DNA of 43,752 bases, the filler included, from Jimgerdemannia flammicorona (Eukaryota), in assembly GCA_003990765.1 (NCBI GenBank). It is 2 parts of 2 records of this genome, joined end to end, with 100 filler letters (N's around TTAATTAATTAA, not from the genome) between each part and the next. Parts side by side here need not be neighbours in the genome. Positions count along the whole stretch, not along the records: positions 1 to 21,830 come from RBNJ01001384.1; 1 more part is not named here. One strand, written 5' to 3'. The position numbers and the translations under genes were made by a program. The notes beneath the pieces are model-generated. The model saw nothing but the letters and a program-made list of their open reading frames with translations. It had not been told where the DNA came from and did no database searches. Positions 1 through 28,101 of the stretch are shown in pieces; the stretch's first letter is position 1, and each line of letters begins with the position of its first letter.

Positions 1-1740
1 GAAACCCTATTCACCAAACTCCTTGCACTACACCCAGCAAGTCAAGATGAAGAAGGTCTTATTGAAGCCTTCTTTACTCTTCTCAACAAGAGTTTTGTCA
101 GCTCCACAAATCCGAGCGACCTAGGACAACCAGCAGCAGTCTTTCTAGCCTTAGTTCTTCACGAAGCCCAAGCCTCTGTAGCCAAGTGGCTCAACTCTAC
201 TGACTTTCACCACACCAGGACCAAGACCGCCTTATACTACCGATTCCAGAACAGCAAGGCCCGCCATATCCTTAAAGAAGAAGCAAGAGAAACCCTTCAT
301 CAACTACCTGACCCCGAACCTGAAGCAGGCCCTGCTACAACCCTACCTGAATCTGAAACCAATACCGAACCTGAACTTGACTTTGAATTAAGTCCATCTG
401 AAATCAGATATACAACTGATTCTGTCTATTTTGACGCCGAACAAACCCAATTACACGGGGACCAAACCGAAGAAGAGGAGGAGTATCTCACTGAATTCGA
501 TCCCGGATACACCACCGAAGGAGACACACATCCATCAGGACAGAATACACCTACACAGCAACAAACAGCTATCTATCAAGCCCTCACTCCAGATCCATAA
601 CTACTACTCCAGCAACTTACACAGACCCAAAGAACCCCATCACACTCTGCACCAGTACCTCAAGTAGTACCAGTAACACCACTACCAGCAGTCCAGCTGC
701 CTCCAGTAAACAACATGGCGAACCAACAGATTCTAGACCTCACAGCCCAAGTAGCTATAATGGTAGCAACTATTACAGCCTTAGCCGAACAGACCCGACC
801 TACCAAAAATCTGAGCCTACCTACCTTCAATGGTACTGCACAAGAAGTCCAAAGCTTCATTAGTGTAGTTGACACCAACTTTGAAGCCAATCAATGGACC
901 AATGAACGAGTTGCTGACCGCATTCTGACAAACAATCAAGACCACACCCTGGAACAACTCTTTGCTACAACTACAGCCTATGTCCGCCGAGTTGTTACAT
1001 TCTTCCAAGGACCTGCTGAAGAATGGTGGCGAACCCTTCCTGAAACACCCCTCACATGGGATACCCAACCTGCAGTAGTTGCTCAGAATGCAGCAAACAA
1101 TGCCCCAGGATATGGAGCCCATCCTGCAGCCCCTGGACTCAAACAACTCATAATTGTTCAATATCGCAGCGAAACAATGATTGCCGAATCTCGAGTAAAA
1201 CTCTGCAACCTCAAATTTGATGTACATGGCAAAGAAGAATTCGAAACCTTTTGTACAAAACTCAAGTCACTTCTGAACACTGTTGGCCTAGGATATATTG
1301 CCAATGACGAAGCACGAAATGGTACAAGAGCAGACCATTTATTCGATGCCCTACCTGAATGGCTTACTAGAAAAATCCGAGAACAAGGCCACCCAGTTGG
1401 TTGTGATCACCAACAATGGTGCCTGGCAAGAATCAAGACCATGGTTAAGCGAATTCTAACAGCTGGACCAATTCTGCCCCGGAGGCAATTCAATAATAAG
1501 GAAAAGACTTGGACCAAGAAAGAAGAACCCAAGCATGAAGCATCTCGAGCTCCCTCCACATCCACCTCTTGGACACCCAGAAATCATGAACCCAGCCAGC
1601 CAAGTACCTTCAAGAAACTCACTGAAGGCGAAAGGAACGAACTTCGAAGAAGCGGAGCATGCTTCTATTGCTGAAAGACAGGACACATGGCCAGTGCCTG
1701 CCCCAACCGAAAACCCCGAACAGCAACCTGAGCAACTGTC
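1..1740 (+). pseudogene. gag: Gag with long acidic/Pro-rich N-terminal part, capsid-like region and CCHC zinc knuckle
   Basis: LPTFNG and FFQGPAEEWW capsid-like motifs. CFYC*KTGHMASAC (CX2CX4HX4C) at 1660-1701, read through the TGA at 1672. Confidence 0.88.
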
Positions 1741-1779
1741 ACCACTCTGCACCACCTCAAAAACCTGACCACCAGAACA

Positions 1780-2190
1780 CTAGACTTTGTCAAGTTAAGA
1801 CAAACTGCTAAGGCCCCAACCAAAGAAAGTCAAAAAGCAGCAGGATATGACCTGTATGCAGCCGAAGAAGCTACAGTTTCCAACCGAGAAGTCAAACAAG
1901 TCTATACAGGAATCAGTATCCAAATCCCTGAAGGACATGTTGGAAGAATATGCTGTTGCAGCAGCCTAGCGCTGAAAGGACTCTCAGTAGAAGGAGGAGT
2001 CATTGACGAAGATTATACAGGCGAAATTATTGTCCTCATCTGAAACCACAGTTGGACACCCTTCAAGATCCCTATTGGCTTCTGCATCACCCAGATCCTG
2101 TTCGAAAAAATCGAGTCAACCTTGACAGTCAAGGAAGTCCCTGAACTACTACCCACCATCCGAGGATCCAAAGGATTTGGCTCATCAAAC
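1780..2190 (+). pseudogene. dut: dUTPase domain of the retrotransposon polyprotein
   Basis: Manual frame-1 translation shows all five trimeric dUTPase motifs in order: AAGYDLYA, GRICCCSSLALKG, GGVIDEDYTGEI, GFCITQIL (decayed GxRIAQ) and RGSKGFGSS. The ORF track misses it because of stops. Confidence 0.95.
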
Positions 2191-2409
2191 AAGGCCCCAG
2201 CCTAACCTACCATGAGTAAAGAAGAACAATTCTACAAGAAGATTGAAGATGGATATGTACCAAGTGGCTGATGCCCTCATGGTATTGGAATGTACTCTTC
2301 CCGAATGATCGATGATTGCTTCTCTTGTGTCAACGAACTGGCTCAAAGAAGAACCAACAGAAGAAAGGCTCCTACAACCGAAATCACCACCATTGGATCA
2401 GACAAACTG

Positions 2410-2740
2410 CTCACCCTTAAGGCCTTTGTCAACGGAGCACCTGTCAAGATTATGATAGACAGTGGTGCTTCAGGCAACTTCATCAATGAAGAGACAGCCA
2501 ACAGACTCAAGGTCTTCACCTCCCCAGTACAGCAAACTCAAGCAGTTGCTACAGCTGATGGAACCTCGCATGTTATTAGCAAAGAAGTCTGCAATCTACC
2601 CTTCCGAATTGGCGACTACCGAGTACATGTTACCCTCCAAATCGTGCCACTTCCTGACAATGAAATCATCCTTGGGACCCCATGGTTAAAACAAGAGAAC
2701 CCTATGATCGATTGGGTAAACCATTCTCTGACCATCAAGA
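2410..2740 (+). pseudogene. Retropepsin aspartic protease domain
   Basis: [12 protein letters not shown] (DSG at 2458-2466) and IILGTPWL. Confidence 0.93.
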
Positions 2741-2969
2741 AAGGACGCCACAACTTCAAACTACAAGGCGAAAAGGACTCACTCAACTCTAGTGACCCTG
2801 GACCAAAGATCACCCACATCAACAAGCTACAACTTAAGAAATTGGCCAAGAAATGCCCTCTCTTCGCTATCTCCATCTGCCCATCCAAAGGAGAACCCGA
2901 GAACTCTGAAGAGGATTTTTCCAAAGTTGACAGCTGTGTCAGACCACTACTCCAGAAATTCCGAGACAT

Positions 2970-4330
2970 ATTCCCAAAGAAGCTCCCGAAAGGCCTACCA
3001 CCCAAACAAGCAGTAGATCATGCCATCAAGACTATCCCAGATGCCAAACCAGCCTTCAAGTCAATCTACCACATGTCTCCGAGAGAAATTGATGCACTCA
3101 AGAAAGAAATCGACGAACTCCTAGAACAAGGATTCATCAGACCCAGTGTATCACCCTATGGTGCACCAGTCCTCTTTGTTGTCAAGAAAGGAGAAGACCT
3201 ACGAATGTGCATTGACTACCGCGATCTCAATGAACAGACCATCAAGAACTATTGCCCACTACCAAGGATCGATGAAATATTTGATAGACTCACCAACCCA
3301 CAATTCATGAGCTCCTTTGACCTGCGAAATGGTTACTGGCAAATTGCCATGAAAGAAGAAGACATCTACAAGACAGCTTTCCGAACTCGCTATGGACACT
3401 TCGAGTTCTTGGTTATGCCCTTTGGCTTAACTAATGCTCCAGCAACCTTCCAGACACTGATGAATACCATTCTGCATCCATACCTGGACAATTTCGTTGT
3501 TGTCTACATTGACGACATCCTAGTCTTCAGCAAAACCCTGGAGGAACATCTTGAACACCTTGAACTAGTACTACTAAAACTCCGAGAAAACAGACTCTTT
3601 GCAAAACTCAGCAAGTGCGAATTTCTTCTGAAAGAAATTCAATTCCTTGGACACATTGTCACCCCGAATGGAATCAAAGTGGACCCCAGCAAAATCTCTG
3701 CAATCAAAGATTGGCCCAGACCGAAGAAGCTGAAAGACCTCCAGTCATTCCTGGGATTAGCAAACTATTACAGGCGATTTGTTGCTAACTTTGCTAAAAT
3801 TGCTACTGCCCTCACCCAAATGACCAAGCACAGCAAGAAACAAGAACAACCTTGGACCATGAAACAAGAGAAAGACTTCAACAATCTTGTAAATTGGGGA
3901 CCCGAATAAGATACTGCCTTTCAAGCACTGAAAGATGCCCTGATAACTACACCAGTACTTCAAGCAGTAAACCCTGCCCTACCATATGAAGTTACTACTG
4001 ATACCTCTGACCTAGCTCTTGGAGCAGTGCTCATGCAAGAAGGACACCCTGTGGCCTATCACTCCCACAAGTTCAATGATGCCGAAATCAACTATGCAAC
4101 TTACGAAAAGGAAATGCTAGCCATCGTAGACACTCTGATCAAATGGCGACCATATCTAGAAGGAGCACACTTCACTGTATTGACTGACCACAAGTCATTA
4201 GTCAACATCAAGACACAGGCTACTCTTTCTCGAAAGCAAGCTAGATGGATGAAAGTCCTCACCAACTTTGACTACGAAATCCAGTACTGCTCTGGCAAGG
4301 AAAATATTGTTGCCGATGCAATCTCCAGAC
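2970..4330 (+). pseudogene. pol: Reverse transcriptase and RNase H (Ty3/Gypsy)
   Basis: RT motifs [40 protein letters not shown] and YIDD (3505-3516). RNase H motifs VTTDTSDLALGAVL, NYATYEKEMLAI, TDHKSL and NIVADAISR. Confidence 0.97.
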
Positions 4331-4521
4331 CACCAATCGAAGAGGTTATCCAATCTCTGACCTTGGTTACCAACACTATCATGGAACAAATCATCACAGC
4401 ATATGTTGATGATAAAGAAGCTCAAGCACTCTGAGAAATCCTGAACAATGATGATGCTGACAAGCATACCTGGTACAATCAATACCAACTCAAGGACAAT
4501 GCTATCTACTATAAGGATAGA

Positions 4522-5846
4522 TTGTATGTTCCAAACAACCGAGACCTCAGAAGGACTATCCTATTCGAATGTCATGATGCCCCTACAGCTGGACATTTAG
4601 GATTTGATAAATGTTACGAAGTTATCTCCCAAAACTTCTATTGGCCCCGCATGGCAGATCAGCTCAAAACCTATATCACTTCCTGTGATGTCTGCCAACG
4701 AAACAAGTCCTCAACACTAGCAAAATCCGGCTTACTTCACCCTATTCCAGTACCATCTGCAAATTGGGAATAAATCTCCATGGACTTCATTGTACAACTA
4801 CTGCGAACCAAGAATAGAAAGATGCAATTGTTGTCTTTATAGACTACCTCAGCAAACAAGCCCACTTTGTGCCTACTACCACTACTGCAACAGCACCAGA
4901 CATAGCCACACTCTTGTTTGACAACATCTTCCGCTATCATGGTCTTCCCAAGATCATTGTTAGTGACCGAGATCCAAAATTCACCAGCCACTTTTGGAAA
5001 GCCCTCCATGCACACCTTGGAACGAAACTTGCACTATCCATAGCCTTTCACCCTGAAACCGATGGCCAAACTGAAAGAATGAACCGAACGCTGGAACAAA
5101 TGCTAAGGAACTATGTATCCTACAGACAAGATGATTGGCATGAACACCTCACTGCAGTCGAGTTTGCCTATAACAACAGCAAGCAAGCCTCTCTTGGAAT
5201 GACCCCATTCTTTGCTAATACTGGACAAAACCCGAACACCCCTTTGACACTTATCTGAACTACTGAAGAACCCTCCACAGTCGAAGCTATTGAAGAATTC
5301 CTACTCCGAATGTGCAATCTAAGCCAGATCGCAATTGAGAATTTATCACGAGCTCAAGAACAACAGTCACAGTATATTAACCAACACCGCTGAGAAGAAA
5401 CTTTTGATATCAGAGAAAAAGTCCTACTAGACATCAGAGGATACCAAGTTGACAACCTCAAGCACAGACCATCTACAAAGCTGAACAGCAAGTTCATTGG
5501 ACCATTTGAAGTCATCGCACAAGTTTCTCCAACCTCCTACAAATTGGCACTACCAGACACCATTAAGATTCACCCAGTCTTTAATGTCCAACGTCTCAAG
5601 CGATACAATGACAACGATGATGAGCTATTTCCAAACCGGACCACCAAACCACCTGTACCTGTCATTATTAATGACCAAGAAGAGTACGAAGTTGAGCAGA
5701 TCCTCAACAAACGCAGCAACAAGAACCATCCTGAGTACCTTGTCAAATGGAAAGATTACCCAATCCATGATGCAACCTGGGAACCCAAGACCAATCTTCA
5801 GAATGCTACCGACCTAGTTCAGGAATATGATTCCTTGAACAACTAG
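4522..5846 (+). pseudogene. Integrase (HHCC, DDE, GPF/Y) with C-terminal chromodomain
   Basis: CHDAPTAGH...CDVCQ; ISMDFI, IVSDRD, PETDGQTERMN; KFIGPF...HPVFNV; chromodomain YEVEQILNKR...YLVKWKDYP...TWEP at ~5680-5830. Confidence 0.96.
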
Positions 5847-6258
5847 AACCAAATACTCTGCACCTATCCATACATACTATATATTACCCTCCTGAACATT
5901 ATAACTATCATGAACCAAATCAAGAACTCAGCAAAACAAGACAAGAATACCGACCCTCTGGAAAAATAGCAAAACTGAAAGCAAGCCTATTCTCCCTGTA
6001 CCACAGGTGGGAAACAAGGCATAGACATTTAAGAAGATTCCTTAAAGGAAATTCCCCAGCAGTGAATGATGTCAGAATCACTTCTGGCGTACGGCATTGA
6101 ACACATGACCCTTTAACGTGTGAATCCAATGCGTTAGGAAACTGTACTACGAGCATGCCACTTTCTGAGAAAAATGGACCTTACTGAACTTTTGACCTCC
6201 CAAATGGTGTAACAACACTAGAACAAATTAGAAGGGCTTGACGAGGACATCGAAAGCT

Positions 6259-6271
6259 AAGAAGAGGAGAG
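6259..6271 (+). promoter_or_regulatory. Polypurine tract (plus-strand primer)
   Basis: AAGAAGAGGAGAG preceded by CGAGGACATCGA and followed one base later by TGTAAG. The family B element has a similar context on the minus strand at 13820-13850. Confidence 0.8.
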
Positions 6272-6272
6272 T

Positions 6273-8374
6273 TGTAAGCGCACAACCTCCAAGCCACCGA
6301 AATTATATGTCACCCTCTGAACAAAGCCACTGAAATCACACGCGACCTCCGAACAAATCTGGAAATCACCTGCTTGATTATGAAGCTGAGTCAAACCGAA
6401 GTCACAGCGCACAAAGCTGAGTCAATATGAAGTCACGGAACACAAGATCTACACAAACAGAACATTACCAATCAGGACCAAATGCATATATACTGAGCAC
6501 CGAGACGCGTCAAATCAGAGAACCAAAACAAACAACAACCACAACTTCCAAACACACAAACATGACCACTGAGATCTACAACCGCATCCGCGCTGACATT
6601 TGGAATGCCATTGTCAACCGAGCCACACCCCCTCTGCCCCTCATGAATATGTATCCATAGTCTGGCACCTCTCTACTTCATGGAAGCCCAATGGAACACC
6701 CTGAACATGCTTAGCGAGGCCCACCAAATAGGACAAATCTCAAGCTACTACCAGATCGGCCGCCTCCTAGAAGACACGGTCAAACACCACCATGATACAG
6801 ACATTATCCAGATGTCTCAACACCAGAAGCTCATCGCCCGCAAACATCAAGAACTCTTCTATGAGTACAACACCTTTATTCCCCACCTCCGAGTTACTAC
6901 CAGCGAAATGGTTGCTACCCTGTCCTATGGCCAAATCGATGACATAATACAAGAAATCAACCACAAGTATCTCGAATATGTCCAGACCACAGATAGAACC
7001 TTCCCGCACCCCGATGACCATATCCTGCAAATGCCTCAAGTTGGATATACTATGAAGGATGTCTATGATATAATCCACTTCGATGAAGACAAAGCAGAAG
7101 ACAATGATCTCTCCGATGCCGACATGACCTCTAGCCAAGGATCTCTGCCAACTCTGATCACTCCGCCAACCTTACCAATGAACTTGCAATAGTTCATAAC
7201 CGCATACGAGACTTATTGGGACAATGACCACTGGCATGAATACCAACCTGCGTTCACCTCTGACTACTTCAACTACAATGAAGAGACTGGAGAACACAAC
7301 CTGTACCTTCAGACAACCCTCGAGATTGAACCAACCACTCCACCACCCAAGTACGAGCGACTTGAACCACAGCCGCCAGCTTACTACAACCCCGCGACTC
7401 ATAGTGCTGTAATCTATAGAAGGTATGCAGACAGCGAATCCGATGAAAGCGAAGACAGTACACCCATCCTTCACCCACCAACACCTTATCCAGCATATGA
7501 AACAGACGATGCTATCCTGTGGGATGGAGATAAAGTCCCAATGTATTACTACCTCAGCCAACAAGGAGAAGTAATCCACGAACCACTCTTCCTAGACGAC
7601 TACTTCATCAGAGATGATGCAATCGATGGTGATGTCATCGAAGACTACCCAGATAGTGCCTAAACCTATAAATAGTCTAGCAGTCATAGTATAGATAGAT
7701 TAGTCTTGTACGACGTGACTGTGAACTGACTCAGCAGTCAGATGATCTCTTGACATGTCAGATCACACTTGTACTACGTGACTGCATTCCGACTCAGCAA
7801 GGCACTTAGTGCTACATCCACATTTAGCATAGTCCAGATAGCCCCTCACTAGTATAAATACCCCCTCCCCCAGACCTCAGGATCTCAGACTCAAACAGAC
7901 TTGAACAATCCGAACACAACTCCTGAGCACTTCCCCACAATACTCCTTCACACAACTACTCCTAGTATAGCAATATCATGAATAGCAAATAAACCTATTC
8001 CATAACCCACAAACCACTCTTAAGTAAATCCACTCTCTGTTAGGTCCTACTCCTAACCCCGTCACGAAATTTCCTAATTGAGTATTGTCTGCAGCGATAC
8101 GCCAATTCGACTAAGCTGGTCTTAGTTTCTTGAACTTCCTGAAATACGGAAAATCCTGAACATCCAGAACTAGTCCGGAAAAGGACTTTGGTTGAGACGT
8201 CAACCCAATCTTGAAATCAATAAGCATAGAGGACATACTCCATATGAAATTGATCTTGACCATAAGAAAACAGTCTTCCAGAATATCCAGAACTTCCAGA
8301 AAACCCTTCCAGAACTACATAACGGTCACCCTAAAAAGTAACCCTCTTATACTTCCTGTCTTGCGATTTTAACA
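6273..8374 (+). repeat. 3' LTR of family A element (~2.1 kb)
   Basis: TG start after the PPT; TATAAATA boxes at ~7667 and ~7853; AATAAA at ~7988; CA end at 8374 (alternative end GTCACG at 8066). The partner LTR is not in the window, so the boundaries are inferred. Confidence 0.65.
6562..7663 (+). pseudogene. Accessory protein of unknown function encoded downstream of the PPT (~365 codons; one frameshift, one TAG)
   Basis: ATG at 6562 (MTTEIYNRIRADIWNAIVN), frameshift near 6650-6660 into ORF 6680-7192. Past the TAG at 7190 the same frame stays open for another 156 codons to TAA at 7661-7663. Confidence 0.75.
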
Positions 8375-9350
8375 AACTGGTCCTGCTCCACCTGTCTCTT
8401 GAGTAGTGCCACATTAAGTCACCATCTGCCTCCACCACCACTGGCCACCTGGAATCTCCCACACACCTCTACACCCCAGTGATCTGACCAGGGACACCAC
8501 TATACCTCTGTTGAATCCAAAACATTACCCCAGCATTCTGCCACCAGAATCCAGTCAATCCTTGTGCCAACCAAATCCTCACTGACTGGATGCCACCTAA
8601 TAAATGGCCCTGACTTCTCACCTTGACGTTGTCATACTCCATCGACCAATCTCATTTCCTTCTCAACTTGAAGCCATCGTGAGAGCCCTGTAGAAACTGC
8701 CACTCTGACTCCACCATCAGACCTATCTAGTGTCCTGTCACAAACTATGTTGAAGTCCCCTCCCAAAATGTCCAGCCCAATCTCCTCTCGGCCCCCCTGA
8801 CCACCTACTTCTCTTGCACCTACACCAGCCCCAACTGTCACCACAAAACTCTTGGAGAGACCCAGACCAGGCCTCCTTCTCTCCAAGTGCTCAGAGCTTG
8901 ATGAACCCTGGGTTGCCATCTGACGAAAACTCCACTGAAACAGATGAGACTTGTTGTATACTGTAGCTAGACTTCTGCTGCACCTTGTACACCAGAATAG
9001 ATGATGGGAAAACTTGAAAACGTGTTGCTTGTAGTGAAAAGATGTCTGTGTGGCTTAGCTTGCTCTGAATGGTTGCACATAGTAACCAGATAGCAACCAA
9101 CTTGTATAAATTACCCCAGAGACAAGAGTGAATAAACCTCATTCTGAAATTCAGAACACATTCCAACTCCAGTTCACTTTCCAATACAAAGAAGAGTCCA
9201 AAATTGAATCCAAAAGTAAAAGACAAGTCTGCCTATTATACTTTGAGGGATATGCCTGCCAAAAGCCACTTGATCCAGAAAGGATTGCAACACTTAGGAG
9301 AAATGCCCACTCTAAAGCCACTACTAGGAGATTGTGAGCATTGGTTCCCT
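8375..9350 (-). mobile_element. Non-LTR retrotransposon (LINE) APE endonuclease fragment
   Basis: Minus-strand LGGDFNIV...LDR, LVD, GTRIDWIL and WSDHW motifs of APE endonucleases. Interrupted by an LTR-like insert at 8899-9292. Confidence 0.8.
8899..9292 (+). repeat. Solo-LTR-like insert related to the 17639-18115 solo LTR
   Basis: TGATG...CAACA ends. Shares AACTTGTATAAAT..CCCAG...GAGTGAATAAACCTCA with ~17890-17932. No convincing TSD. Confidence 0.55.
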
Positions 9351-9460
9351 TTTTCCACTCCGGTCCACTTTCCGATACAAAGAACAAGTCCGTTTTTGGT
9401 TTGCTTGCCAGATAAGCCTGAAGTTTGCTGCCCAAGTTCAAGGAAGAACTTCGCCGCCGT

Positions 9461-9810
9461 TTCCCAGTTGAAGCCGCCGATTCAGGAAGAATCCGCGCCA
9501 TCTGAGTTATTTCCCAGAAGCCTGCCAATTCAGGAGAATCCGTGTCATCTGCTGTTTTTGAGTTATCTGCATTCCCAGAAGAGCCCGTGCCATCTGAGTA
9601 GTATTCCCAGTTGAAACCGCCAATTCAGAAGAATCTGCACCATCCGAGTTATTTCCCAGAAAGCCGCTGATTTAGGAAGAATCCGCGACATCCGAGTTGT
9701 TTGTTCCCAGTGAGCCTGAGTTATCAAGTTATCTACTGCCAGCACAATTCCCAGTGATATTCAAGAACCCCGCCGATTTAGGAGAAGCCGCGCCAAATCA
9801 AGCTATCTGC
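9461..9810. repeat. Degenerate ~45-50 bp tandem repeat
   Basis: About 5-6 imperfect copies of TTCCCAG(TTG)AAGCCGCCGATTCAGGAAGAATCCGCGCCATCTGAGTTAT. Confidence 0.75.
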
Positions 9811-9912
9811 CAGAAATCGCATACTTTTGGGGATCGTTGTGCTACACAGAGATCACCATGCCACACAGAGATCACCACCCAAGAAAGAGAACTGCTAAAT
9901 CGCCAGACCATC

Positions 9913-10371
9913 AAGACGGGCATAACGGGCAAGACGGGCAAGACGGGCAAAACGGGCAAGATGGGCAATATGGGCAAAATGGCAAGACGGGCAACATGGG
10001 CAAGACGGGCAAAACGGGCAAAACGACATGGGCAAGATCGGCAAAATGGGCAAGATGGGCAACATGGGCAAGACAAGATGGGCGATATGGGCAAGACGGG
10101 CAAAATGGGCAAAACGACAGGCAAGACGGGCAAGACGGGCAAGACGGGTAACACGGGCATGACGGGCAAGACGGGCAAGACAGCAAGTTGGGCGACATGG
10201 GCAAGACGGGCAAAACGGACAAAACGACACAGGCAAGACACGGGTAACATGGGCAAGATGGGCAAGACGGGCAAGATGGCAAGACGGGCGACATGGGCAA
10301 GATGGGCAAAATGGGAAAAATGACATGGGCAACTGGGCAACTGGGCAAGATGGGCAAGATGGGCAAGATGG
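9913..10371. repeat. 9-bp minisatellite (GGGCAAGAC/GGGCAAGAT)n
   Basis: Directly visible tandem array with higher-order variants such as GGCAACATGG and AAAACGACA. Confidence 0.95.
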
Positions 10372-10374
10372 GGA

Positions 10375-10641
10375 GGCACTAATAGGGGTAGGCCAGGTGT
10401 ACTAGATGCCAAGTACTTGAGGTGGTTGGGGCTCACAACCCATACCCACTCTTGGGTGGGGCAGGCTGGGTAGGAGGATCTAGTTACTCGGGCAGTGAGG
10501 TTGCAACTCACATCCTAAAGGTGCTTAGATTATTATTGGTTTGAAAATTGTAGTGTGAGAGTAGGGTGGGGTGAGATACAGAATGTGGCTGCTGGTATGG
10601 CATGAGGATTTTAGATAGTTAATAAAAAAAAAAAAAAAAAA
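10375..10641 (+). mobile_element. LINE 3' end with poly(A) tail
   Basis: GGCTGCTGGTATGGCATGAGGA...TAGATAGTTAATAAA followed by an A-run; resembles the 3' end of the minus-strand LINE at 29321-29420. Confidence 0.6.
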
Positions 10642-10959: not shown

Positions 10960-11940
10960 AGTTCCAGTAGAAGGAATAGTAATGTCCAATTTCAGAAGGC
11001 AAAAAAGATCTTTTAGCTCTGAATTCTCAACAACTGTAAAAGGCTGGCTATTATAGATAATTCAGTAAACAAGTTTGTCTTGAAATAACTTTATAGAGAA
11101 TCTTGGCTATTAAGAGAATTATCAAGTAGTAATGAATTAATAAAAAGAAGAAAAAAAAAAAAAACAGACAAGTTATATAAAAATCATACTTTTGAAAAAA
11201 TAACTCTATCACTCCTATTTGATAACTCTTATGAAATTTGTCCACAAATCTGTTGTTGAGCCACCAATAGCATTATATAATACTTTATAGTAGTTATATT
11301 TAATTTAAATATCTTTATTTTTCTTATACTTCTTTGTGAACTCCTTCTAAATACTAGATCACTTATAATAGTTCTAGTTTCTTTAAGAGAAAGTAGCTAA
11401 ATCTGAAAGTTCTAGTTGGCCTAAAGTAGCTCAAAGAGATACTTAAAAATTCAAGTATTTTTAAAGGATTTCTGAGAGAAAATATTCTGAGCTTTATTCA
11501 GGTAGAGAATAAGAATATTTATATATGATCTTAAAGAAAGATCCAGAAGGATCTTGAAAAGAAAGAGAAATGACAAGAAATAAGTTCTTGGTAAAGCTGA
11601 CTAATACTATTCTACAATATTCCAAAAGGTTCCATAACTAGCTAAAACAAGATACTTGGCACCAAGGAAAGACAAGAATATTCTAGTAGTATCTGAGTAC
11701 CAAGAGAAGGTTTCTAAGTAAGTAGAAGGTGGTGGAACATAGTAGAATGTTCAAGAAATGATAAGAAAAGACCACAAAAATATACTAAGACTAAATATGA
11801 CTGTGAAATTATTACATCACCCTTATACTTTTCTTTTCCTTTCTCAGATAAGATTATACTTATTGAAGCTAGACTTATTGAAGCTAGACTTGTTGAAGCT
11901 ATATTTGATACTGAGGCTATTGTCATAGTATCTTTTATAG
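10960..11940 (-). pseudogene. hAT-superfamily transposase relic (BED finger plus adjacent region), split by a solo LTR
   Basis: Minus strand: SSI*KEFTKK; KYNYYK...GGSTTDLW (decayed BED CxxC); LFQDKLVY*IIYNSQPFTVVENSELKDLFCLLKLDITIPS, typical of Ac/hAT transposases. Confidence 0.7.
11364..11816. repeat. Solo LTR of Gypsy family B with 5-bp TSD
   Basis: Homologous to 19833-20291; ends TATAATA...ATTATTACA; flanked by TCACT/TCACC. Confidence 0.85.
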
Positions 11941-12272
11941 AGAGTATAAAAGGTACTTCTGGTATAATTACTTTAAGAGAGTATGTATATATATATTATA
12001 AGTTATATTATATATATGTAATTGGAATTATAATATTTAGTTTTGAATTTCGAATTCAATTTGATTTGAATTGTAACTAGATTCAATTCAAATTGAATTC
12101 CAAATTAAATTTGAACTCTGAATCAAATTTCAAATTTAATTTGCTTCAAATTGTGACTTAATTCAATTTAAATTAAATTAGACTCTAATTTAAATTAGTT
12201 TGAATTAAATTGACCCTCAATTTGATTTGACTTGAATTGAATTAACCCTTAATTTGATTTATTCTAAGTACA

Positions 12273-13082
12273 ATATATATTTACAAAGCTACTAAAAATT
12301 TCTATGGAAATTCTTATAGAAATTTCTATAGAATTTCTAACTAATAGGCATAGTTATCTAAAATAGTTTAACTATATATATATATATTCGGTATACTATA
12401 TTTAGTTATAGTTTCAAATATATATAAATATTCTCTATACTAAATATATTGAAATCTCAGCTCTGCTTTCTCTAAATATAAAAATAAAGTAGTATTCTTA
12501 TTATAGAACTCTCAGATCTAACTTGTTAATAATTTTGAATCTGATCAACTTGGGATACAAGTACAGTACTTCTACTAGTATATATGTATAAGAACTCAAA
12601 AGTGATATCTGAACTTTATTGTAATAGATAATTAGAACTCAGTGCTTCTTTAAGAGTACTAAACTTAGAGCTAATGATTATCTACAATATATTAATTCTA
12701 TTATTATATATGTTATTTTATTATATCATATAATCTAATGAGTGATAATATTATGAATAAGTAATATATGAGATAAATAAGACAAATAAGACAAATATAG
12801 AAAATAATATACTAAATTTTCTAAATACTAAAGTCTATACTAGTAGTATAGTAACTATATTACTTAATTAATATATTATCAAAAGTGATTATACTGATCA
12901 TAAAACCAAAAGTAATTATCTTAAATATAAAAGATATTCCTTTTGTAAATAAACAACTAAAACAGTTATATATCTAATTAGTTGTATATAAATAGCCAGA
13001 AAACTGTGAAATAGTACTTAGCTAATATATATAAATATATATATATCTTAGCAATTATATTTAAAATAAACTAGCTATTAGT
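12273..13082. mobile_element. Decayed copy of the long-TIR non-autonomous element also seen at 26974-27614
   Basis: Shares the AGAAATTTCTATAGAATTTC...GTATACTATATTTAGTTATAG arm and the internal TGATCAACTT region, in inverted orientation relative to the other copy. Confidence 0.6.
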
Positions 13083-15027
13083 TAAGTACAAATCTCTCTC
13101 CATATATACTTCTCTGAGTTTCTTAGTAATAAACTCTAAGTTACTTAACTTTTACCAGAACTAAGAACTAGTATAAAAATCTAAAAAAAAAATCTCTTTG
13201 AATTTAAATTATAAGAGATTTAGTCAGTATATAGTAAGAATAAGTTCTTATAACTATAGTTATTAATAAAGGATAATATCTTATTTCTATATAAAGAAAC
13301 AGTACTTTTCAATCTTAGTAAATACTACTAAGTAAAAGAACAATTGAAAGGCTTCTTGATATATATATATATTAAGTCTCTAAGTAATATCTTATTATCT
13401 ATATCATCTAAGAATATAAGAGAGATTGAAATAAGTATTATTATATAAGAGATCTTAAAGGATTTCTAGAGAAAAATGAGCTGAGCTTTATTTAAGCAAA
13501 AGATAAAAATACTTATACAGGTCTAAAAGAAGGATTTAAGAATCTTGAAAATAAAAGAAAAGGCCAAAAAATAGATTCTCAGCAAAGATGACTAATAGAA
13601 TTCTACAATGTTCCAAAAAGGTTCTATAATTAGCTAAGATAAGATACTTAGTACTAAAAAAAGATAAGAATGTTCTAGTAAAGTCTTAGTACTAAGAGAG
13701 AATTTTTAAGTAATTAAAAGATACTAGAATACTATAGAATATTTAAGAAAAGATAAAAAAAGACTAGAGAAAAGATATAAAAATAGACTATAACTAAGAA
13801 ATACTAAGATATTATTATATCTCTCTCTCCTTAAGAATTAATATCCTTATTGAGTTTTTAAGATTATATAAAAATAGTTATACTTAATCAAAATTTCTCA
13901 AACTTATATAGATATTATTATAAAAAGTTAGTCACTTTGTATATATATATAAGATAAGAGCTAAAGACTTAGTAGTTTGAGATTTGAACTACTTAGAGAA
14001 AAACTCTTGTTATTCTAAGTAAGCTTACTATATATAGTAGTAACTATATCTGTACATAAAAGTATATCAAGTTAGTAAGTAATAATAAGAGTATAAATTT
14101 GTATTTTAAAGTCTTAAATAAGATCTTGAGCATTCTTGAGATTAATTAATAGTTTCTAAGTAGTATCATATTTAGAGTAGTCTATTTATTTGACCAGATA
14201 TTCAGGTTAATAGTAGTGAATTTACTTGTTAAGAATTTTCTCAGTCTTATATTCAATATAGTCTTTAATAATTATAGATGTAGATAGCTTAAAAATTTGA
14301 ATAAGGTAGAGTAATAACTAGTTTCAGACCTTGAGGTGAGATATATAGAAGACTGAATATACTAGATAATTTGAAATAGTAGGTATTTATAGAAACTTAT
14401 TCTGTAATCTTAAAGTGTTTAATAAACTTAGATTGAAACTTATTTGATAGATAGTTAACTTTTAATTATATATATATATCTTGAGATTCTTAGTTAACAG
14501 AAGAACTTGATTACTGATAGTATAAATAGTATTACAATATTTCTTATTAGTATACTTAGTTTGAGATAGTTATATTATAAAGTTCATTGTAACTTATTCA
14601 AACTTCTTAATAGAAATTAAAAGTAATTGAAATAGATCAACTAGTACTTAATTACTAGATTTGTTATATTGATAAAAATCATAACTAGTAATATAGTACT
14701 TAATTTCCTTGATTATATTGAGCTAATAGTAGTGATGTTGAAGGTTCTTGATAATTTTCTCAATTTTAAGTTAACTAGTAAGTAGAAAGTTATAATGTAC
14801 TTATAATATCTTATAGCAAAGTTCTATATTATCTAATAGGTAGACTTTGTCTTAATAGTAGATCAGGTTATTCTTGAGAGTATATATATCTTTGAGCTAT
14901 TTGAGAAATACTAGTAGTAATAATGTCTTTCTTATAAACTTGTCTAATTTGGTCTAGAAATTCTAGCATTAAGGTAACTTGTATTACTATAGTAATATCT
15001 AGATATCTTAATAAGGTATCTGATACT

Positions 15028-15369
15028 TAGTGCTTCTAAATGAATTAAATAAATTTGAATCAAATAGAATTGAGAATTATTTAAATCAAATTAAATTGGA
15101 AATTTTTTAATTCAAATAAATTTCAATTTAAATTGAATTATAAATCTAATTTAAACCCTATTTTTAGAAATATGATAACTCAATAAAAACATATCCAAAT
15201 TAAATTATCTTTAGTTTATTAGATTTACCTTATATAGAGAAATCTAATAAGCTAAAGATTATTAAATTTAGACATATATGTATTTATCAAGTTATTATAT
15301 TTTGAAAAATAGAGTTTGAATTGAATTTTGAATAGAATTAGCCTTTGATTCAATTCATTGGGAGTACTA
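15028..15369. mobile_element. hAT-type foldback MITE (TAGTGCT...GAGTACTA) with 8-bp TSD
   Basis: Whole-element palindrome with TSD CTGATACT/CTGGTACT. Sister copies at ~15611-15895 and 18179-18518. Confidence 0.85.
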
Positions 15370-15610
15370 CTGGTACTACAAGTATCTTGCCAGGCTTATA
15401 GATAATTGTCAGATTAAAGGTTTGAAGTTTCTGACTTCACTTGGCTTATTAATATAATAGGGTAAATTAAGTATTAATATACTTAAGAGATTGATGATAA
15501 ATAATAATATCAAACTCAATATCTTTTAGATAATATCTCTAGTGGTCTAGGGTATATATAATTGTCAGTAATTATTTTTTATGAGTAGTTAACTTCTGTT
15601 CTGCTAATAG

Positions 15611-15895
15611 TAGTATTTCTAATAAATCAAATCAAAGGTCCAACTCAATTTGCTTTGAATCAAATTAAATTCTAATTCAATTTGAAATTCAATTTGAACT
15701 TTATTTTTTGAAATATAATAACTCAATAAATATATATATCTAAATTTAATAATCTTTAGCTTATTAGATTCTTCTATATAAGGTAAATCTAATAAGTAAA
15801 ATATTATTAAATTTTGATATATTTTTATTAAGTTATTATATTTTTAATAATAGAGTTCAAATTGAACTTTTGATTTAATTCAATTGAATATACTA
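15611..15895. mobile_element. hAT-type foldback MITE, same family, inverted
   Basis: Homologous to 15028-15369, with the central AATCTTTAGCTTATTAGATT...AATCTAATAAG palindrome. TSD unclear. Confidence 0.75.
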
Positions 15896-17638
15896 TAGTA
15901 AGATAATGAGATAGTATTTCTTTCTATAATCTTGTAATAAGACTACTCTAATAGTGAAATTTAAGATATATATCAGTAGTAACTTTGAATTTTAGATTTG
16001 AATTAGGATTTTACAGTACTAGAATATTGGTCAGGTAGTTTTTGAGTTCTTGGAATACTTATTGATAAAAGAGATCTCAGATATAAGATATATATATAGT
16101 TCTCTGAGTGTATTATCTTCTTTATTAGATTTATGAGAGGTTTGCTATTCTTAGAGAGTTTCTGATAAAGCAGTAGTAATAGTCAGCTAGGTCAAAAAAG
16201 AATCTAAGTTCTGTGAGATTTGCTAGCTCAGACTATTCTTAGATTATCTTTATCTTATATAGATTTACTTAAATTCCTTGAGTAGAGATAATATAATCAA
16301 GATATATATTCAACTTGTTTCTTGAAAAATTTATATTTCTTGAGTTTATTATATAATTTATAATCTTATAGAATTTTCAAAATAAGATAGATATCCTTAA
16401 AGTGTTCTTCTTTAAGTATACTAAAGATTACAATATTGTTAAGATATATCAATAGGAAAATAAAAATTAGTTTTTGAATATCTTATTCATGAGAGTCTAG
16501 AATATTATAGGCATATTAGTATAACTAAATACTAGAACTAAGAATTTGTAAAGTTTAAAGAGAGCTATAAAAGTAGTCTTGGAGATATCTTCTAGCTTGA
16601 TTCAAATTTAGTAATATTTAGATATAAGGTCTAGCTTAGTGAAGTACTTAGTATTCTTAAGAGTATTGAAGATCTGATCAATGAGTAGTAGTAGATACTA
16701 GTTCTTAACTATAGACTTATTAAGTATATATATAATAATCTATATATATTTATAAAGTTCTATTCTTCTTTTAATAAAAAGAACTAGTGAGTTATAGAGA
16801 GACTTACTGGGCTGAATAACTCCTCAGATAAGTAGTTCTTCTAGTTCTTTCTTAACTACTTCTATTTTAAGAGATAATATATAGTATAAGATAGTATGAT
16901 TCTAAGGATCAGTTTAATTTTATAATCTATTTTTCATACAGAGAGTAGGCTAGATGACTTGTCTAGAAAGATATCCTTGAATTCTTCTAATAATAACTTG
17001 ATACTTTTATTGATTAACAGCTTTTTGTCTTATTTTTTGAGACAATAATAGTGATAAAAACATATACTACTTTCTTGAGTATTTTCTTATACTATATTAT
17101 TGATAGGATTATAATCTGAGATTTGTTTACTGACTTGTCCAACTTGATAGTAATATTGACTCTATCTTGTAATAGATAACTTTATTTTTACACTAATTGA
17201 TATTCAGATTATACTTAGTGAGTCAGAGTTTTCCTAAAATCAGATTATATTCTGAATATATATTTCTGAATCTTGATGAGTATTTTAACAGCAATTGACT
17301 CAATAATATATAGTATACTATCTGTATAACTATTCTATCATTTCTGAGTATAGACTTAGTGAGAATCTTGAGAGTTTCAATAAGGTTCTGATTGATAAAG
17401 TTACTAGCTGCTCTACTATTAATAAGTACTCAAACATCTTTTTCTTTGACTAGTTCTTTAAAGATAAGTATTACTTGAACTTAGTTTTCAGATAGACTTA
17501 CTACTTAGTCTATATATAAATACTTCTAAAGTCTTTCTGATCTTACTGGGTTGAAGATAGTTCTTAAACTTCTATGATCTTAAATTGACTTACTTCTTCT
17601 AAGATTATTTGTACAACTCAGTCTTCCTTCTTAACTAT

Positions 17639-18115
17639 TGTGACAGACAGCCAGATTTGGAAGAAGGAAATAGGGAATAGACACTTGATCACACCCATTC
17701 CCAAAGAAGTATAGCATTATAGTTAGCAGTCCTCGATTTTGACATTGTCTAATTTCTTAGACATTGTCTAAATTTTAGACATTATCCAAATCGGATACCC
17801 TGATTTAGTATAGCATTTAGACATTGTCCAAATGTTTCGACAAAGTCCAAATGACTCATTTATTACTTAGCCACCCTCTCATAGCTAGCAAACTTGTATA
17901 AATAACCCAGTATCTTTGAGTGAATAAACCTCAGATCGAAATAGTTCAAAAAGCAAAGAGATAGCAAAGGAACTAGTAAGCCTGTGGGCAGATACACTTC
18001 GAACTCACCCACCCTCCCCTGCAACTTCAAGAGACTCTGCGAGAGTCAGAACAGTCAAGTTTTCAAGATACAAAAATCCAACGTACTTTCAAGAGTAAGT
18101 GTCCACTACGTTACA
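17639..18115 (+). repeat. Solo LTR with 4-bp TSD
   Basis: TGTGAC...GTTACA termini, CTAT on both sides, TATAAATA and AATAAA inside. Retains CpGs, so it is younger than its host. Confidence 0.88.
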
Positions 18116-18178
18116 CTATATAATTCTAGTTCTTTTGATTAATAAGCAGAACTTGAACTTATTTTCAATAGTCTGGAT

Positions 18179-18518
18179 TAATACTCCTAAATAAATTAAA
18201 TCAAATTGGGAATTTTTCAATTTAAATAAATTTTGAATCAAATCAAATTCAAATCAAATCAAGAATCTAATTTAAACCCTATTTTTAGAAATATAATAAC
18301 TTAATGATATTATGTCCAAATTTAATAATCTTTAGCTTGTTAGATTTGTCTTATATAGAGGAATCTAATAAGTATAAGACTATTAAATTTAGACATATAT
18401 TTATTAAGTTATTATATTTTGAAAATAGAGTTCAAATTAAATTTCAAATTAAATTAGCATTTGATTCAATTTATATCAAATCAAATTGGACCTTCAATTC
18501 AATTCATTGGAAGTACTA
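18179..18518. mobile_element. hAT-type foldback MITE with decayed 8-bp TSD
   Basis: Same family as 15028-15369. Flanks GTCTGGAT/GTCCAAGT are both derivable from GTCCGGGT by C>T/G>A. Confidence 0.8.
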
Positions 18519-20490
18519 GTCCAAGTTATATAATAACATCAGTACTAATATCTAAATAATAATTGATGCTGAGTCCTAATCTGGATATAATTCTTATATA
18601 GTAGTCTTCTAAATATTAGATTATAATTTTAGTAGATATTAGGGTTCTTCTTTTGCAGAAATAGTGACTTGTTTGACCAAATATAGATCAAGACCAATGA
18701 TTTTTTTTGATTGATATTGAAAAATCTGAGTCTTTGAGTATAGCTCCTTAATCTTAAGTTTTAACTGATTGATAATAAAGTTGATAGATATGTCTTTGGA
18801 CAATACAGTGACTGGTCTTACAGATTTACTTATCTTCTTAGCATATTTAAATATAATATATTCTATCTGGTTATAGAAGAAATATACTTCTAACTTCTTT
18901 AGATATTTCTTCTTTTCAAAAGTAAGCTTGGTATATTTCTTTTTTATGAAATCTAAGTCTATTAGAGCTGATTCTACAATTCTAAACTAGTTCTTATTAT
19001 AGTTCTCAAAGTAATTATTTTATAGTATTCTGGTTCAAAGTAGTGACTATAAATGATAATATCAAATCTATCAGTTATTTTTATAGTTTCTTTAAGAAAT
19101 TTTGGCTCTTCTAACTCAATCTTAACTCATGTATTTTCTTTAAGTCTTAGACATAGTAGTTAATTTCCTTATCTTTAGTAATATCACATAGTTTCAAGAG
19201 AATTGATAAAAATTATATATTGTAACTTTATATAAACTTGAGTTATTTGATATTTGCTAGCTTATCTCTAACTATTTTAATAGTATTAGTAGACTTGAAC
19301 TACTTGTAGAGCTTTTTTGAAAACTGCTCAATCTTTCACTCTTATCTCTCAATAGCTAGATATAGTTATAATATAATTATATTACTATACTATAGTATTT
19401 TCTCAGAGAAGAGTAGTGGTAAATTAGACTTATATATATATCTTCTTCTATTTTTATAAGTTTATAGTATTAGTCTAATAATTAGAAAGTTTAGTTATCT
19501 ATAGACAGTTCTTCTCAGTAGTCATTAAAGATATCTAGTTTGGATAACTTGAAACTGACAGATATAATTATAGAGTATACTGATGTTATATTTTTTATTT
19601 TCTATTATTCTAGCTATACTAATAGATATCAGAGCTAGTGTACTATAGTAGTAATTATTTCTATTAGATCTACTTATATTTCTAGATCTATATCTTCTAT
19701 TATAGTAAGTTTTGGCTGATTGGTTAGTTTTTCATAATTTATTTTAAGTTTATATAACTAGTTATAATTAGTTTCTAAATTTGTATAAGATTATTTAATA
19801 AGATAAGATATAACTTTACTACTGCTACTAAGTGTAATAATTCTAGTTTCTTTAAGAGAAAGTAACTAAATCTGAAAGTATTTTGATAGATCTAAAATAT
19901 ATAGCTCAAAGAGATACTTATAGGTTTAAAATATTTTAAAAAATTTTTAGAGAAAAATAAACTAAACTTTATTTATAAATATTTTTATAGATCTGTAAGA
20001 AATATCTAAAAGAATATTAAAAATAAAAGAAAAAGCTAAGAAATAAGTTTTTAGTAAAGATAACTAATAGAATTCTACAATATTTCAAAAGATTTTATAA
20101 CTAGCTAAGATAAGATACTTAGTACTAAAAAAAAGACAAAAATATTCTAGTAAAGTCTTGATATTAAGAAAGAATTTCTAAGCATTCAGAAGATACTGAA
20201 ATATTATAGAATATTTAAAAAAAGATAAGAAAAGACTAAAGAAAAAATATAAAAATATACTATAACTAAAAAATACTAAAAAATTATTACAAATAAAATT
20301 TTTTATTTAGGAGAAAGTTGTAATAGTTATAATAGTTGAACTAATTAAAAATAACAATTAAGGAATAGATATTTGATTATGATATCTAAATCTAATTTAT
20401 AATATTATATATAGTTTAGCAGTCACTTAATTTTATAGTTATATAATTTATACAATTATGTATATAAAAAGTATAATTATTTAAAGCTTG

Positions 20491-20604
20491 CCCATATAGG
20501 GCTATTCACTCAAGAAGATAGTGTCATCCTTGTGCAGGGGCCATACTAATCTTCTCTGTATCATTTCAATTTTTTTAAGTGTTAGCGATCTCGAAGGACT
20601 TGAC
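20491..20604 (-). pseudogene. U6: U6 snRNA retrocopy
   Basis: Minus strand GTCCTTCGAGATC...ATTGAAATGATACAGAGAAGATTAGTATGGCCCCTGCACAAGGATGACAC, i.e. the ACAGAGA box and ISL with C>T hits. Direct repeats at 20470-20490 and 20605-20625. Confidence 0.92.
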
Positions 20605-21830
20605 AGTATAATTATTTAAAACTTACAATTGTATATATTTTATAAATATATAGATCTCTCAACTATATAAAATAACTTATAGAAAAAAAAATCTTAACTT
20701 AGTTATTATATATACTTATTAGAAAACAGCTCCTTTCTCCACTATCTTACCAGTTACAAGATTTGGTAGGTGACCTTCCAAGTCCCCTTTCCCCTATTAT
20801 TACCCCCTCTACCTCAGGTTGGTTTGCTGTGCCTGCAGGGACATAGTGGGAGGAGGGCAATAGTGATGAGTTGCCCCTTTATCAGTGTCAGATCAGTGCT
20901 TTCTCTACTTTTTTGCGGATTCTGGTGCCTTCGGCTGCATCTGGGGTGTACCTGTTTTGGTGCGGTGCCTTCTTCCTTTTGCCGTCACCAACAAGGTGTT
21001 GTCTTGGTGTGTCTCGGGCTACGTAGGGAGTCAGCCGACCTTGGGCATCAAGTGCTCAGTGTAGGTTACCTGCAGGTCCTCAGTGCCTGTGGTGGGGCCC
21101 TCTGACTTTGGCAAGCTTCCTGGCGAGTGCGGTTCTGGCATAGGTGACTGCTTTTCAGGTGTTGTCGGGATGGGAGAGGAGATGGCCATCACAGATAGGC
21201 GGAAGGGTGATAATAGTGAACCAGTAGGGTACTAGGCTGGGGGCAGTTATTGGGGCTAGGGCAGGTGCTGCTTCAGTGGGGCCTTTTGATTGATGCAGCG
21301 TGGTTAGGTGGTAGGTGTCACTATTGGCTTCTTTTGGCAGTCAGCGGGGTTGGGCCCCAGTCGTCAGAGAGGATCAGAAGGCCCGAGGCTACCCATTTCA
21401 GGCATCTTGGCTGCACTCAACTGGAACTGGGAGCTGACACAGCAACGTGATCGAGGCATGCAGGCTTGAGTAGTGGGGTATTGGGGATTTCCTCCCACCT
21501 CATGTATAAGTCCTTTACTTACCTCAACTGGGAGAACCAGGCTCTACCCACTGTATTGTACTTTGATGAGGGTTTTTTATTTGCCTGTCATTCTCGTTAA
21601 GGTGGCAGAGGCTATTCTATTCGGCTTGGGCATAGTCTTGTATATACATTGGGTTCTCAGGCATGCACTTTCGGTTGTTGGTATATGGTTGGGTTTCCCC
21701 TGATAGTAGGGAGAGCATGGTGTGCAGAATGAGATGCAGGCCTATCGGCCCTACTGTGTCTGGCATGATCGAGCTGCTGGACAATAGCTAGCCTAGATTA
21801 ATGGGGGGGCAGTACTTGGTGGGTGGTGGG

Positions 21831-21930
21831 NNNNNNNNNNNNNNNNNNNNNNNNNNNNNNNNNNNNNNNNNNNNTTAATTAATTAANNNNNNNNNNNNNN
21901 NNNNNNNNNNNNNNNNNNNNNNNNNNNNNN
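21831..21930. other. Assembly gap with artificial TTAATTAATTAA spacer
   Basis: 100-base N block with a central 12-mer that gives stops in all six frames. Confidence 0.95.
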
Positions 21931-27614: not shown

Positions 27615-28101
27615 TCCTTATCTTCTTTATCTGAATCTACTTATTGAATTTAGCACTAAACTCTAAATATTCATCAAATTAAAGAGCAGTATATTGAACT
27701 ATTTGAAAGACAATATCACTCTATTATTCATTACTCAAATTGACAATATTCTTAGAGAATACTCTATAGAAATAGTCAAGGACTTAGAGTTAGATATAGA
27801 AAAGAATATAAATAAAAAGGCAGACTTATTACTTAGTACTACTGAGAGTGATCTGTTGATAGATGAGATATCCAATCTATAGTACTCCTTTAATTTATAT
27901 TAGTAGCAAAAGGTCTGGAAATGTTTGATTCTTCTAAAATATTATTGGACTTCATTTGGGTCTGGGTCTCCAAGATATATATATTGACATAGAGTGGTTT
28001 AATAGAATTCTATTAATATTCAATAGCTATAAGGACAGTAATAGTAATCTTGTTCTTAGTTTGTTCTCTGTATCTTTGCTGGATACTTATATTATAGTAG
28101 A

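Follow-up and report, generated by a model that had tools for sequence, protein, structure and literature searches.

Does the long open reading frame (ORF) behind the pol gene of a decayed retrotransposon in the fungus Jimgerdemannia flammicorona belong to the body of that element, or is it carried within its long terminal repeat (LTR)? The question is raised by a stretch of 43,752 nucleotides (nt) of assembly GCA_003990765.1, referred to here as the window, in which two records are joined with 100 filler letters between them and need not be neighbors in the genome; positions 1 to 21,830 derive from RBNJ01001384.1. The element, a chromovirus with a dUTPase domain, lies at the beginning of the window and is followed by a polypurine tract (PPT), the accessory ORF and a set of transcription signals (Table 1). 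We favor the reading, with a probability of roughly 65%, that positions 6273 to 8374 are the 3' LTR of this dead, single-frame element, and that its long U3 holds a complete accessory transcription unit.

A decayed chromovirus with a dUTPase domain

In translation, gag and pol form one reading frame, which is in frame 1 up to position 4773 and in frame 3 from position 4818, and which ends at a TAG (5844-5846). The frame has decayed; 11 premature stops interrupt it, and it is shifted at least once ahead of the pol stop. Together, Pfam and translation gave the domain order zinc knuckle, dUTPase, protease (PR), reverse transcriptase (RT), RNase H, integrase and chromodomain. The Pfam scan covered 11 translated pieces, three of them from the accessory ORF, and returned matches on seven, including all pol pieces: dUTPase (PF00692; E value, 2.9e-21), RVT_1 (2.4e-35), RT_RNaseH (1.2e-33), Integrase_H2C2 (5.9e-23), rve (3.9e-07), SH3_Tf2-1 (4.3e-18) and Chromo (5.3e-18). 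The succession of PR, RT, RNase H and integrase with a C-terminal chromodomain is that of a chromovirus, and the dUTPase stands at the amino end of Pol, in frame behind the CCHC knuckle, as in the dUTPase-bearing chromoviruses. A preliminary description of the locus had named a chromovirus with the order nucleocapsid (NC), dUTPase, PR, and both the Pfam matches and the frame-1 translation bear this out. This order is already known in fungal chromoviruses; the portion of PMC2864245 that concerns PosPlaTy3-3 places its dUTPase at the amino end of Pol.

Window positions 1 to 600 are open from the first base and are in the gag frame, with a single TAA at 598 dividing off the rest of gag. The window therefore begins within a long Gag, leaving the 5' LTR beyond its edge. 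The N-terminal extension of Gag encoded in this region is long (at least 199 residues) and acidic and had no Pfam match.

Coding evidence for the accessory ORF

The accessory ORF starts at an ATG at 6562 and runs in frame 1 to a stop at 6658-6660, while frame 2 is open from 6647 to 7189. A TAG at 7190-7192 is followed by 156 open codons (7193-7660) and by the final stop at 7661-7663. Reading of the frames thus agrees with the earlier account of a long sense ORF with one frameshift, one TAG and 156 codons beyond it. The frameshift consists of four extra letters at ~6651-6654 of the window. These letters are missing from a contig of a public DNA sequencing run (X2), and a homologue of the ORF product, P0004, reads through the site in a single frame; the frameshift is therefore real and private to the window copy.

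Homologues were sought in a collection of 5.8 billion proteins, and two were recovered. P0004 (128 amino acids, on a contig of 1180 bases) starts with the same MTTEIYNRIRADIW as the window ATG and is identical to the window translation at 84 of 99 positions (85%), gap-free over the frameshift. Its contig has ~796 bases 5' of the ATG and should therefore span the putative LTR start. P0001 (247 amino acids, on a contig of 998 bases) is more distant, with 163 of 250 positions identical (65%), but differs in length only by two in-frame gaps of two residues each, has Q at the position of the window TAG and ends at the same place. An open frame with in-frame gaps only at 65% identity is not what drifting DNA would be expected to show. 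When the candidates are grouped by length, the homologues were 1 of 377 of near length, 1 of 23 shorter ones and 0 of 1009 longer ones. A profile search over 1.84 billion representatives, for which the profile spanned only the C-terminal 247 positions of the accessory protein, returned P0001 only.

The base composition of the ORF also follows its codons. As in pol, first positions are G-rich, second positions A-rich and third positions C-rich, and within 6562-7663 the coding reading has 4 stops, compared with 25 and 15 in the other two frames. The length of the open frame also exceeds chance, with a stop-free run of at least 181 codons in just 15 of 2000 shuffles of 6274-8374, although the homologues and the composition are much the stronger evidence. 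That the accessory gene is a genuine coding sequence of the element, as the preliminary description had supposed, is upheld by the two homologues and by this pol-like composition. The ORF very probably descends from a real accessory gene of the element, an orphan that has decayed in this copy; to judge from its frame and its homologues, it is a formerly selected coding sequence.

Probable placement of the accessory ORF within the candidate 3' LTR

The PPT is followed by one T and then by a TG at 6273-6274. Among all TG dinucleotides in 5847-7860, only that at 6273 follows a purine run of more than 7 nt. Purine runs of at least 10 nt number 13 in window positions 1 to 9000, and 3 of the 13 reach 13 nt. 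The earlier statement that the PPT lies ahead of the ORF, with no other between the ORF and the TATA and AATAAA signals, is thereby supported. Two further parts expected of an LTR are also present: a TATAAATA box at 7853 and an AATAAA at 7988, recognized from the sequence only, provide a TATA element and a polyadenylation signal in the U3 and R regions. All signals named earlier (TATATA at 6487, TATAAATA at 7667 and 7853, AATAAA at 7988 and the terminal CA at 8374) were recovered at their places.

Depth was calculated from contigs of public sequencing runs (DNA runs X1, X2 and X3, and run X19) aligned to window positions 1-10500 at a likeness threshold of 85%, with means for each run taken from 350-nt bin values; such depth reflects copy number only poorly. 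Twenty public runs were listed, with a best word share of 0.29, and none is on record as RNA. Between bins 5251-6300 and bins 6301-7700, mean depth rose from 334 to 989 (X1), from 26.5 to 65 (X2) and from 15 to 45 (X3), and in X19 from 0-1.4 to 3.4-10.4. The 2.4- to 3-fold rise near 6300 in the three DNA runs is as two LTRs per element predict. At the other end, depth in the DNA runs dropped 20- to 50-fold from bin 8051-8400 to bin 8401-8750, reaching 112 (X1), 5.4 (X2) and 5.7 (X3) past 8400 (0 in X19), and loose ends were found at 8349/8351. This drop and the loose ends support an LTR 3' end near 8374, while the PPT and the depth step together support a start at 6273.

Several observations weigh against this placement. 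The terminal inverted repeat of the candidate LTR is weak (TGTAAG... and ...TTAACA, having just TGT(T)AA in common). Repetition of 6273-8374 at the 5' end of the element is presumed, and the direct repeat is not seen in the window, which begins within gag. Point depth rises a second time between 7537 and 7695, from 388 to 1192 (X1), from 55 to 216 (X2) and from 30.5 to 186 (X3), and this 2- to 6-fold step shows the ORF part to be rarer than the last ~700-800 bases. The ORF part has just 1.4 to 1.7 times the mean depth of the 18 internal bins (574, 38 and 31, respectively), near that of gag. Neither an ORF-skipping joint nor a loose-end cluster at 6273 was present among the matches listed. Contig depth also fits a short LTR starting near 7600-7700. 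Finally, neither a family nor a confident fold could be recognized for the accessory product, and its role, most likely that of a trans-acting accessory or adaptor protein in the life cycle of the element, is a guess.

The depth profile gives most to an alternative in which the ORF is an internal additional ORF (aORF) of the sense class behind pol (aORF-3S), the true LTR measures ~700-800 bp and extends from 7540-7710 to 8374, and the purines at 6259 are coincidental or form a second, internal PPT. Such an arrangement would account for the 3- to 6-fold increase between 7537 and 7695 in X1 to X3 and for the gag-like depth of the ORF part, but it leaves the 2.4- to 3-fold step near 6300 in four runs unexplained. 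Sense aORFs behind pol are the commonest kind in the part of the review PMC7264820 that describes them. However, an aORF-3S is internal and lies 5' of the PPT, and here the ORF lies 3' of the only PPT candidate, a distinction that rests on the PPT assignment. The scan of all TG dinucleotides in 5847-7860 gave no comparable PPT, or PPT with TG, around 7540-7710. Nor do the matches listed include a sharp, well-supported loose end in 7540-7710, and a gradual loss of likeness therefore fits the second step better than a repeat boundary does. In X19, moreover, the step is located elsewhere: depth jumps from 11.7 (1 contig) at 7821 to 8464 (34 contigs) at 8000, around the predicted U3/R border, as though U3 varied and R and U5 were conserved. 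For these reasons we regard a short LTR as unlikely, and an accessory gene within the 2.1-kb LTR as the better-supported reading and a fairly probable one.

If the ORF does belong to the LTR, we take the second depth step to reflect related subfamilies that share promoter, R and U5 and whose U3, with its fast-evolving ORF, would fall below the 85% threshold, as P0001 is just 65% identical in protein. A similar pattern is known from crapaud, a fungal chromovirus in which, according to the part of PMC10787394 that deals with its LTRs, the U3 half varies among subfamilies and the 3' half of the LTR is conserved. The same combination would explain the commoner last ~700 bases here, although the crapaud LTRs described there are 339-443 bp long and noncoding.

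Run X19 covers 5999-6142 and 6483-7890 (spacer, ORF and LTR) but none of the 17 gag-pol bins (1-5950). In that run, the 3' module seems to be joined to another, or a far more diverged, internal region.

Searches for further copies were negative. Within the window, blastn for a second copy gave only the self-match, as did tblastn with all element proteins and P0001, and a search after purine/pyrimidine collapsing, aimed past decay like that of repeat-induced point mutation (RIP), again found the self-match only; the latter search gave one additional 48-nt match, with a score like that of the shuffled control. In metagenome contigs, the accessory-protein alignment matched 415 pattern stretches with 0 relatives, and an 18-nt LTR word gave 16 loci, of which none was related to window 1-10500 by blastn. 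Scanning of prokaryote-genome contigs for element copies found nothing related, and viral contigs scanned with the ORF alignment, P0004, two back-translated patterns, gag and PR-RT gave 0 loci; one viral-contig scan counted one tblastn relative among 2 stretches and likewise returned 0 loci.

Table 1. Positions of the element, the accessory ORF and associated signals in the window
Feature	Position	Strand	Basis
Internal region of dead chromovirus, truncated by window start	1-5846	+	Frames, Pfam
CCHC zinc knuckle of nucleocapsid, CFYC-stop-KTGHMASAC, in-frame TGA at 1672	1660-1701	+	Frame-1 translation
dUTPase domain, gag frame, between zinc knuckle and protease	1732-2040	+	PF00692, 76 bits (cut-off 22)
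Noncoding spacer, pol stop to PPT, 412 bases	5847-6258	+	No long frame, no Pfam match
PPT AAGAAGAGGAGAG, 13 nt, pure purine	6259-6271	+	Purine-run scan
Candidate 3' LTR, TG...CA, 2102 bp	6273-8374	+	PPT, depth, termini
Predicted U3	~6273-7885	+	Signals
Predicted R	~7885-8010	+	Signals
Predicted U5	~8010-8374	+	Signals
Tandem pair of 31-nt module, AAGCTGAGTCA...GAAGTCAC...CACA, each with TGAGTCA core	6383-6445	+	Repeat scan
TATA-like TATATA, 70 nt 5' of accessory ATG	6487-6492	+	Sequence
Accessory ORF, 365 codons when read through	6562-7663	+	Frames, homologues
Second TATAAATA, right behind accessory ORF stop	7667-7674	+	Sequence
Inverted module copies, one with TGACTCA	7697-7736, 7760-7799	+	Inverted-repeat scan
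TATAAATA, proposed genomic-RNA promoter	7853-7860	+	Sequence only
AATAAA, sole one in 5846-8500, proposed polyadenylation signal for genomic RNA and accessory mRNA	7988-7993	+	Sequence
CA end of candidate LTR	8373-8374	+	Sequence
AACTG, candidate target-site duplication in 3' flank	8375-8379	+	Sequence

Shared promoter modules and the proposed transcription unit

A 31-nt module occurs twice in tandem ahead of the ORF (period 31, 2.0 copies, 81% matches), ~40 nt 5' of TATATA, and recurs in inverted orientation ~55 nt 5' of the main TATAAATA. The inverted arms are 30-32 nt long and 70-77% complementary, with a best match of 24/31, which none of 100 dinucleotide-preserving shuffles reached (maximum, 22). 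TGASTCA by itself is not enriched in the window (9 matches compared with 6.9 expected); significance is reached only by the whole 31-nt module. The TATA-like element that the preliminary description had placed ahead of the ORF is present, and TATATA and the modules together make up a promoter-like sequence. As the module pair recurs inverted ahead of the main TATA, the gene appears to own a promoter copied from the LTR enhancer. The tandem pair is proposed to be the upstream activating element of the accessory gene, and we read the modules as a putative orientation-independent upstream element serving both the accessory-gene and the genomic-RNA promoters. These shared promoter modules are the detail that is new here.

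In the proposed unit, the tandem modules (6383-6445), TATATA (6487) and the ORF (6562-7663) would be followed 3' by the LTR's own promoter, with the inverted modules (7697-7799) and TATAAATA (7853), by R with AATAAA (7988) and by U5. Priming of plus-strand DNA synthesis at the PPT (6259-6271) would lead to the whole unit being copied to both ends of the insertion. In either LTR, transcription of the gene would start at its own promoter and end with polyadenylation at the LTR signal, giving an mRNA of ~1.5 kb, and, with upstream modules shared by both promoters, it would be coregulated with the genomic RNA. The product is predicted to be acidic and soluble; its N-terminal part would be helical, and its tail has no confident fold and carries conserved short motifs.

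Inverted modules on either side of the ORF, and a core beyond 7700 that is commoner than the ORF part, might also be expected if the ORF cassette were a foreign insertion of ~1.4 kb bounded by these modules (~6385-7798), such as a small inverted-repeat transposon or a captured piece present in one subfamily only. This we consider improbable, since the points 6384/6385 and 7798/7799 show no evident target-site duplication, and since the arms are asymmetric, being adjacent at the left and 63 nt apart at the right, with each module pair at promoter distance from a TATA element. A foreign origin also sits poorly with the codon-position composition, which is the same in the ORF and in pol, and with the frame kept in a homologue of 65% identity, which indicates long residence under selection; in addition, the Pfam scan gave no transposase-like family match. 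That the ORF is no gene, having stayed open by chance in LTR sequence rich in A and poor in stops, is hardly credible, because a stop-free run of at least 181 codons in 15 of 2000 shuffles of 6274-8374, the presence of long antisense frames and the lack of a family, a confident fold or RNA evidence are set against two intact homologues (85% and 65% identical) whose gaps are all in frame and whose start and stop agree with those of the ORF, conserved motif blocks, pol-like composition and the far more numerous stops of the other two frames.

Properties of the accessory protein

No Pfam family was matched at an E value of 0.01 or below by the three ORF pieces, and the best match among PDB sequences had an E value of 0.13. 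The ESM Atlas gave no usable feature matches or neighbors, and its own model had a predicted local distance difference test (pLDDT) score of 0.39. AlphaFold2 likewise reached a pLDDT of only 31.5 for 338 residues and of 47.1 for the N-terminal 128, drawn as five helices, and these models are therefore too poor for a meaningful fold search. The N-terminal ~115 residues are predicted to be helical, and the remainder has no confident fold. The protein is acidic (isoelectric point, 4.9 for the middle part and 4.05 for the C-terminal part) and rich in Tyr and Pro. Neither a basic cluster nor a membrane segment was seen in the accessory protein, the maximum Kyte-Doolittle mean over 19 residues being 0.21-0.97 in five sequences.

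Conserved islands of the protein (FPHPDDHILQMPQV, YQPAFT.DYFNYNE.TGEHNLYLQTT, HPPTPYPAY and EPLF.D.YFIRDD) resemble short binding motifs within a tail of no confident fold. Two PPxY motifs, PPKY and PPAY, are found in the window copy. As this pair is missing from P0001, a late-domain role of the accessory protein is unsupported.

Comparison with known elements

Genes within U3 are known from retroviruses. The sag gene of mouse mammary tumor virus (MMTV), the "LTR ORF," lies in the U3 of a betaretrovirus, and lentiviral nef overlaps U3. A U3 gene is thus present in both LTRs, and MMTV in addition encodes a dUTPase just ahead of its protease. Sag is a membrane protein, and nef starts upstream of the PPT. 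The resemblance of the J. flammicorona element to these viruses, a coding gene within what is here the candidate U3 of the 3' LTR, is positional only. In contrast to sag, the accessory protein has no hydrophobic segment, and there is no sequence likeness, with no Pfam family matched at the threshold given above. Unlike nef, the accessory ORF starts 289 nt after the LTR start. Furthermore, the host is a fungus and the element is without env. The betaretrovirus-like layout proposed in the preliminary description is overstated and holds as a positional analogy only, the accessory protein having neither a Pfam likeness nor a membrane segment.

Among fungal chromoviruses, a dUTPase is present in PosPlaTy3-3 of Postia placenta, in elements of Phanerochaete chrysosporium and in Tmt1 of Tuber, as given in the section of PMC2864245 that covers them. 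The element studied here resembles the PosPlaTy3-3 type in that a chromodomain follows integrase and the dUTPase, placed behind the Gag zinc knuckle, opens Pol. However, a figure legend of that paper has an "add. ORF" with no statement of an ORF in the LTR (PMC2864245, in its relevant section), and here the extra gene lies beyond the PPT.

The additional ORFs of LTR retrotransposons described in the relevant portion of the review PMC7264820 are internal; most stand between pol and the 3' LTR, and either orientation occurs. Nowhere does that review use "in the LTR" or "within the LTR." Boty elements of Botrytis carry an antisense extra gene, brtn, according to the part of PMC8365987 describing it. 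The accessory ORF shares with the aORF-3S and brtn, so far as these sources describe them, the position behind pol, the family-specific orphan nature, the unknown function and the lack of homologues outside the elements. Theirs are internal and 5' of the PPT, and some of them resemble env and have membrane segments; in contrast, the ORF here lies 3' of the only PPT, has its own promoter-like sequence and encodes a protein with no membrane-spanning segment by the Kyte-Doolittle measure, and thus does not resemble the env-like aORF-3S. Rice Retrosat2 has LTRs of 3.2 kb, but its extra ORF0 is upstream of gag-pol in the passage of PMC3485330 that presents it, and bdelloid elements, which likewise carry dUTPase, capture various ORF3s (PMC5408684, in the portion on these genes). 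A literature search, with most subscription journals outside its scope, found no report of a protein gene inside a retrotransposon LTR. The one literal match on a gene within an LTR was actually to a gene inside the element body (PMC1560396).

Other features of the window

Three runs had loose ends "before" 8527, supported by 9, 4 and 5 reads and similar in consensus, and these mark the edge of another repeat ~150 bases past the LTR end. Further downstream are a 48-nt tandem repeat (9470-9702) and a minisatellite (9912-10372) with ~50 copies of a 9-nt unit (GGGCAAGAT-like) and higher-order periods of 18, 27, 44 and 96. Depth at the minisatellite was 41110 in X19 (bin 9801-10150) and low in X1 to X3.

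AT-rich blocks with a GC content of 0.20-0.30 (11000-21000, 26000-29000 and 35000-43752) stand beside blocks of 0.42-0.47, a pattern as after RIP. The AT-rich blocks hold decayed minus-strand gypsy copies with 30-43% protein identity to the studied element: one with RT (16889-16143), integrase (14884-14597) and chromodomain (14362-14117), one with gag (38461-37934), dUTPase (37525-37292) and RT (36304-35813), and one with integrase (42748-42067) and chromodomain (41755-41615). A repeat of 370-470 nt is present in three direct copies that are 72-80% identical (11366-11816, 13446-13817 and 19835-20291); the minus-strand gypsy copy at ~14100-17000 lies between two of these, which are probably its LTRs. 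A full-length U6 spliceosomal RNA gene (20492-20596, minus strand; Rfam RF00026, 74.4 bits, E value of 3.8e-17) borders an AT-rich block. Two runs of 44 N are found at 21831-21874 and 21887-21930.

Implications

If the gene is internal, the element adds one more orphan aORF to a known kind of dUTPase chromovirus. Should the LTR placement hold, it is an LTR retrotransposon whose U3 contains an accessory gene with a promoter of its own, and such a gene would be duplicated at each insertion and would survive as an expressible unit in solo LTRs. The odds appear about even for a wider, lineage-level proposition, namely, that each LTR, solo LTRs included, is a self-contained gene with a promoter made from inverted enhancer modules and a selected accessory product, and that this is the first LTR-borne accessory gene in an LTR retrotransposon, independent of MMTV sag and beside the same dUTPase-protease arrangement. 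The shared promoter modules provide a testable hypothesis of coregulation. With the gene in U3, the element would stand beside the complex retroviruses as a second and independent example of the "LTR ORF" and, if true, would offer a tractable fungal system for asking what such accessory proteins do.

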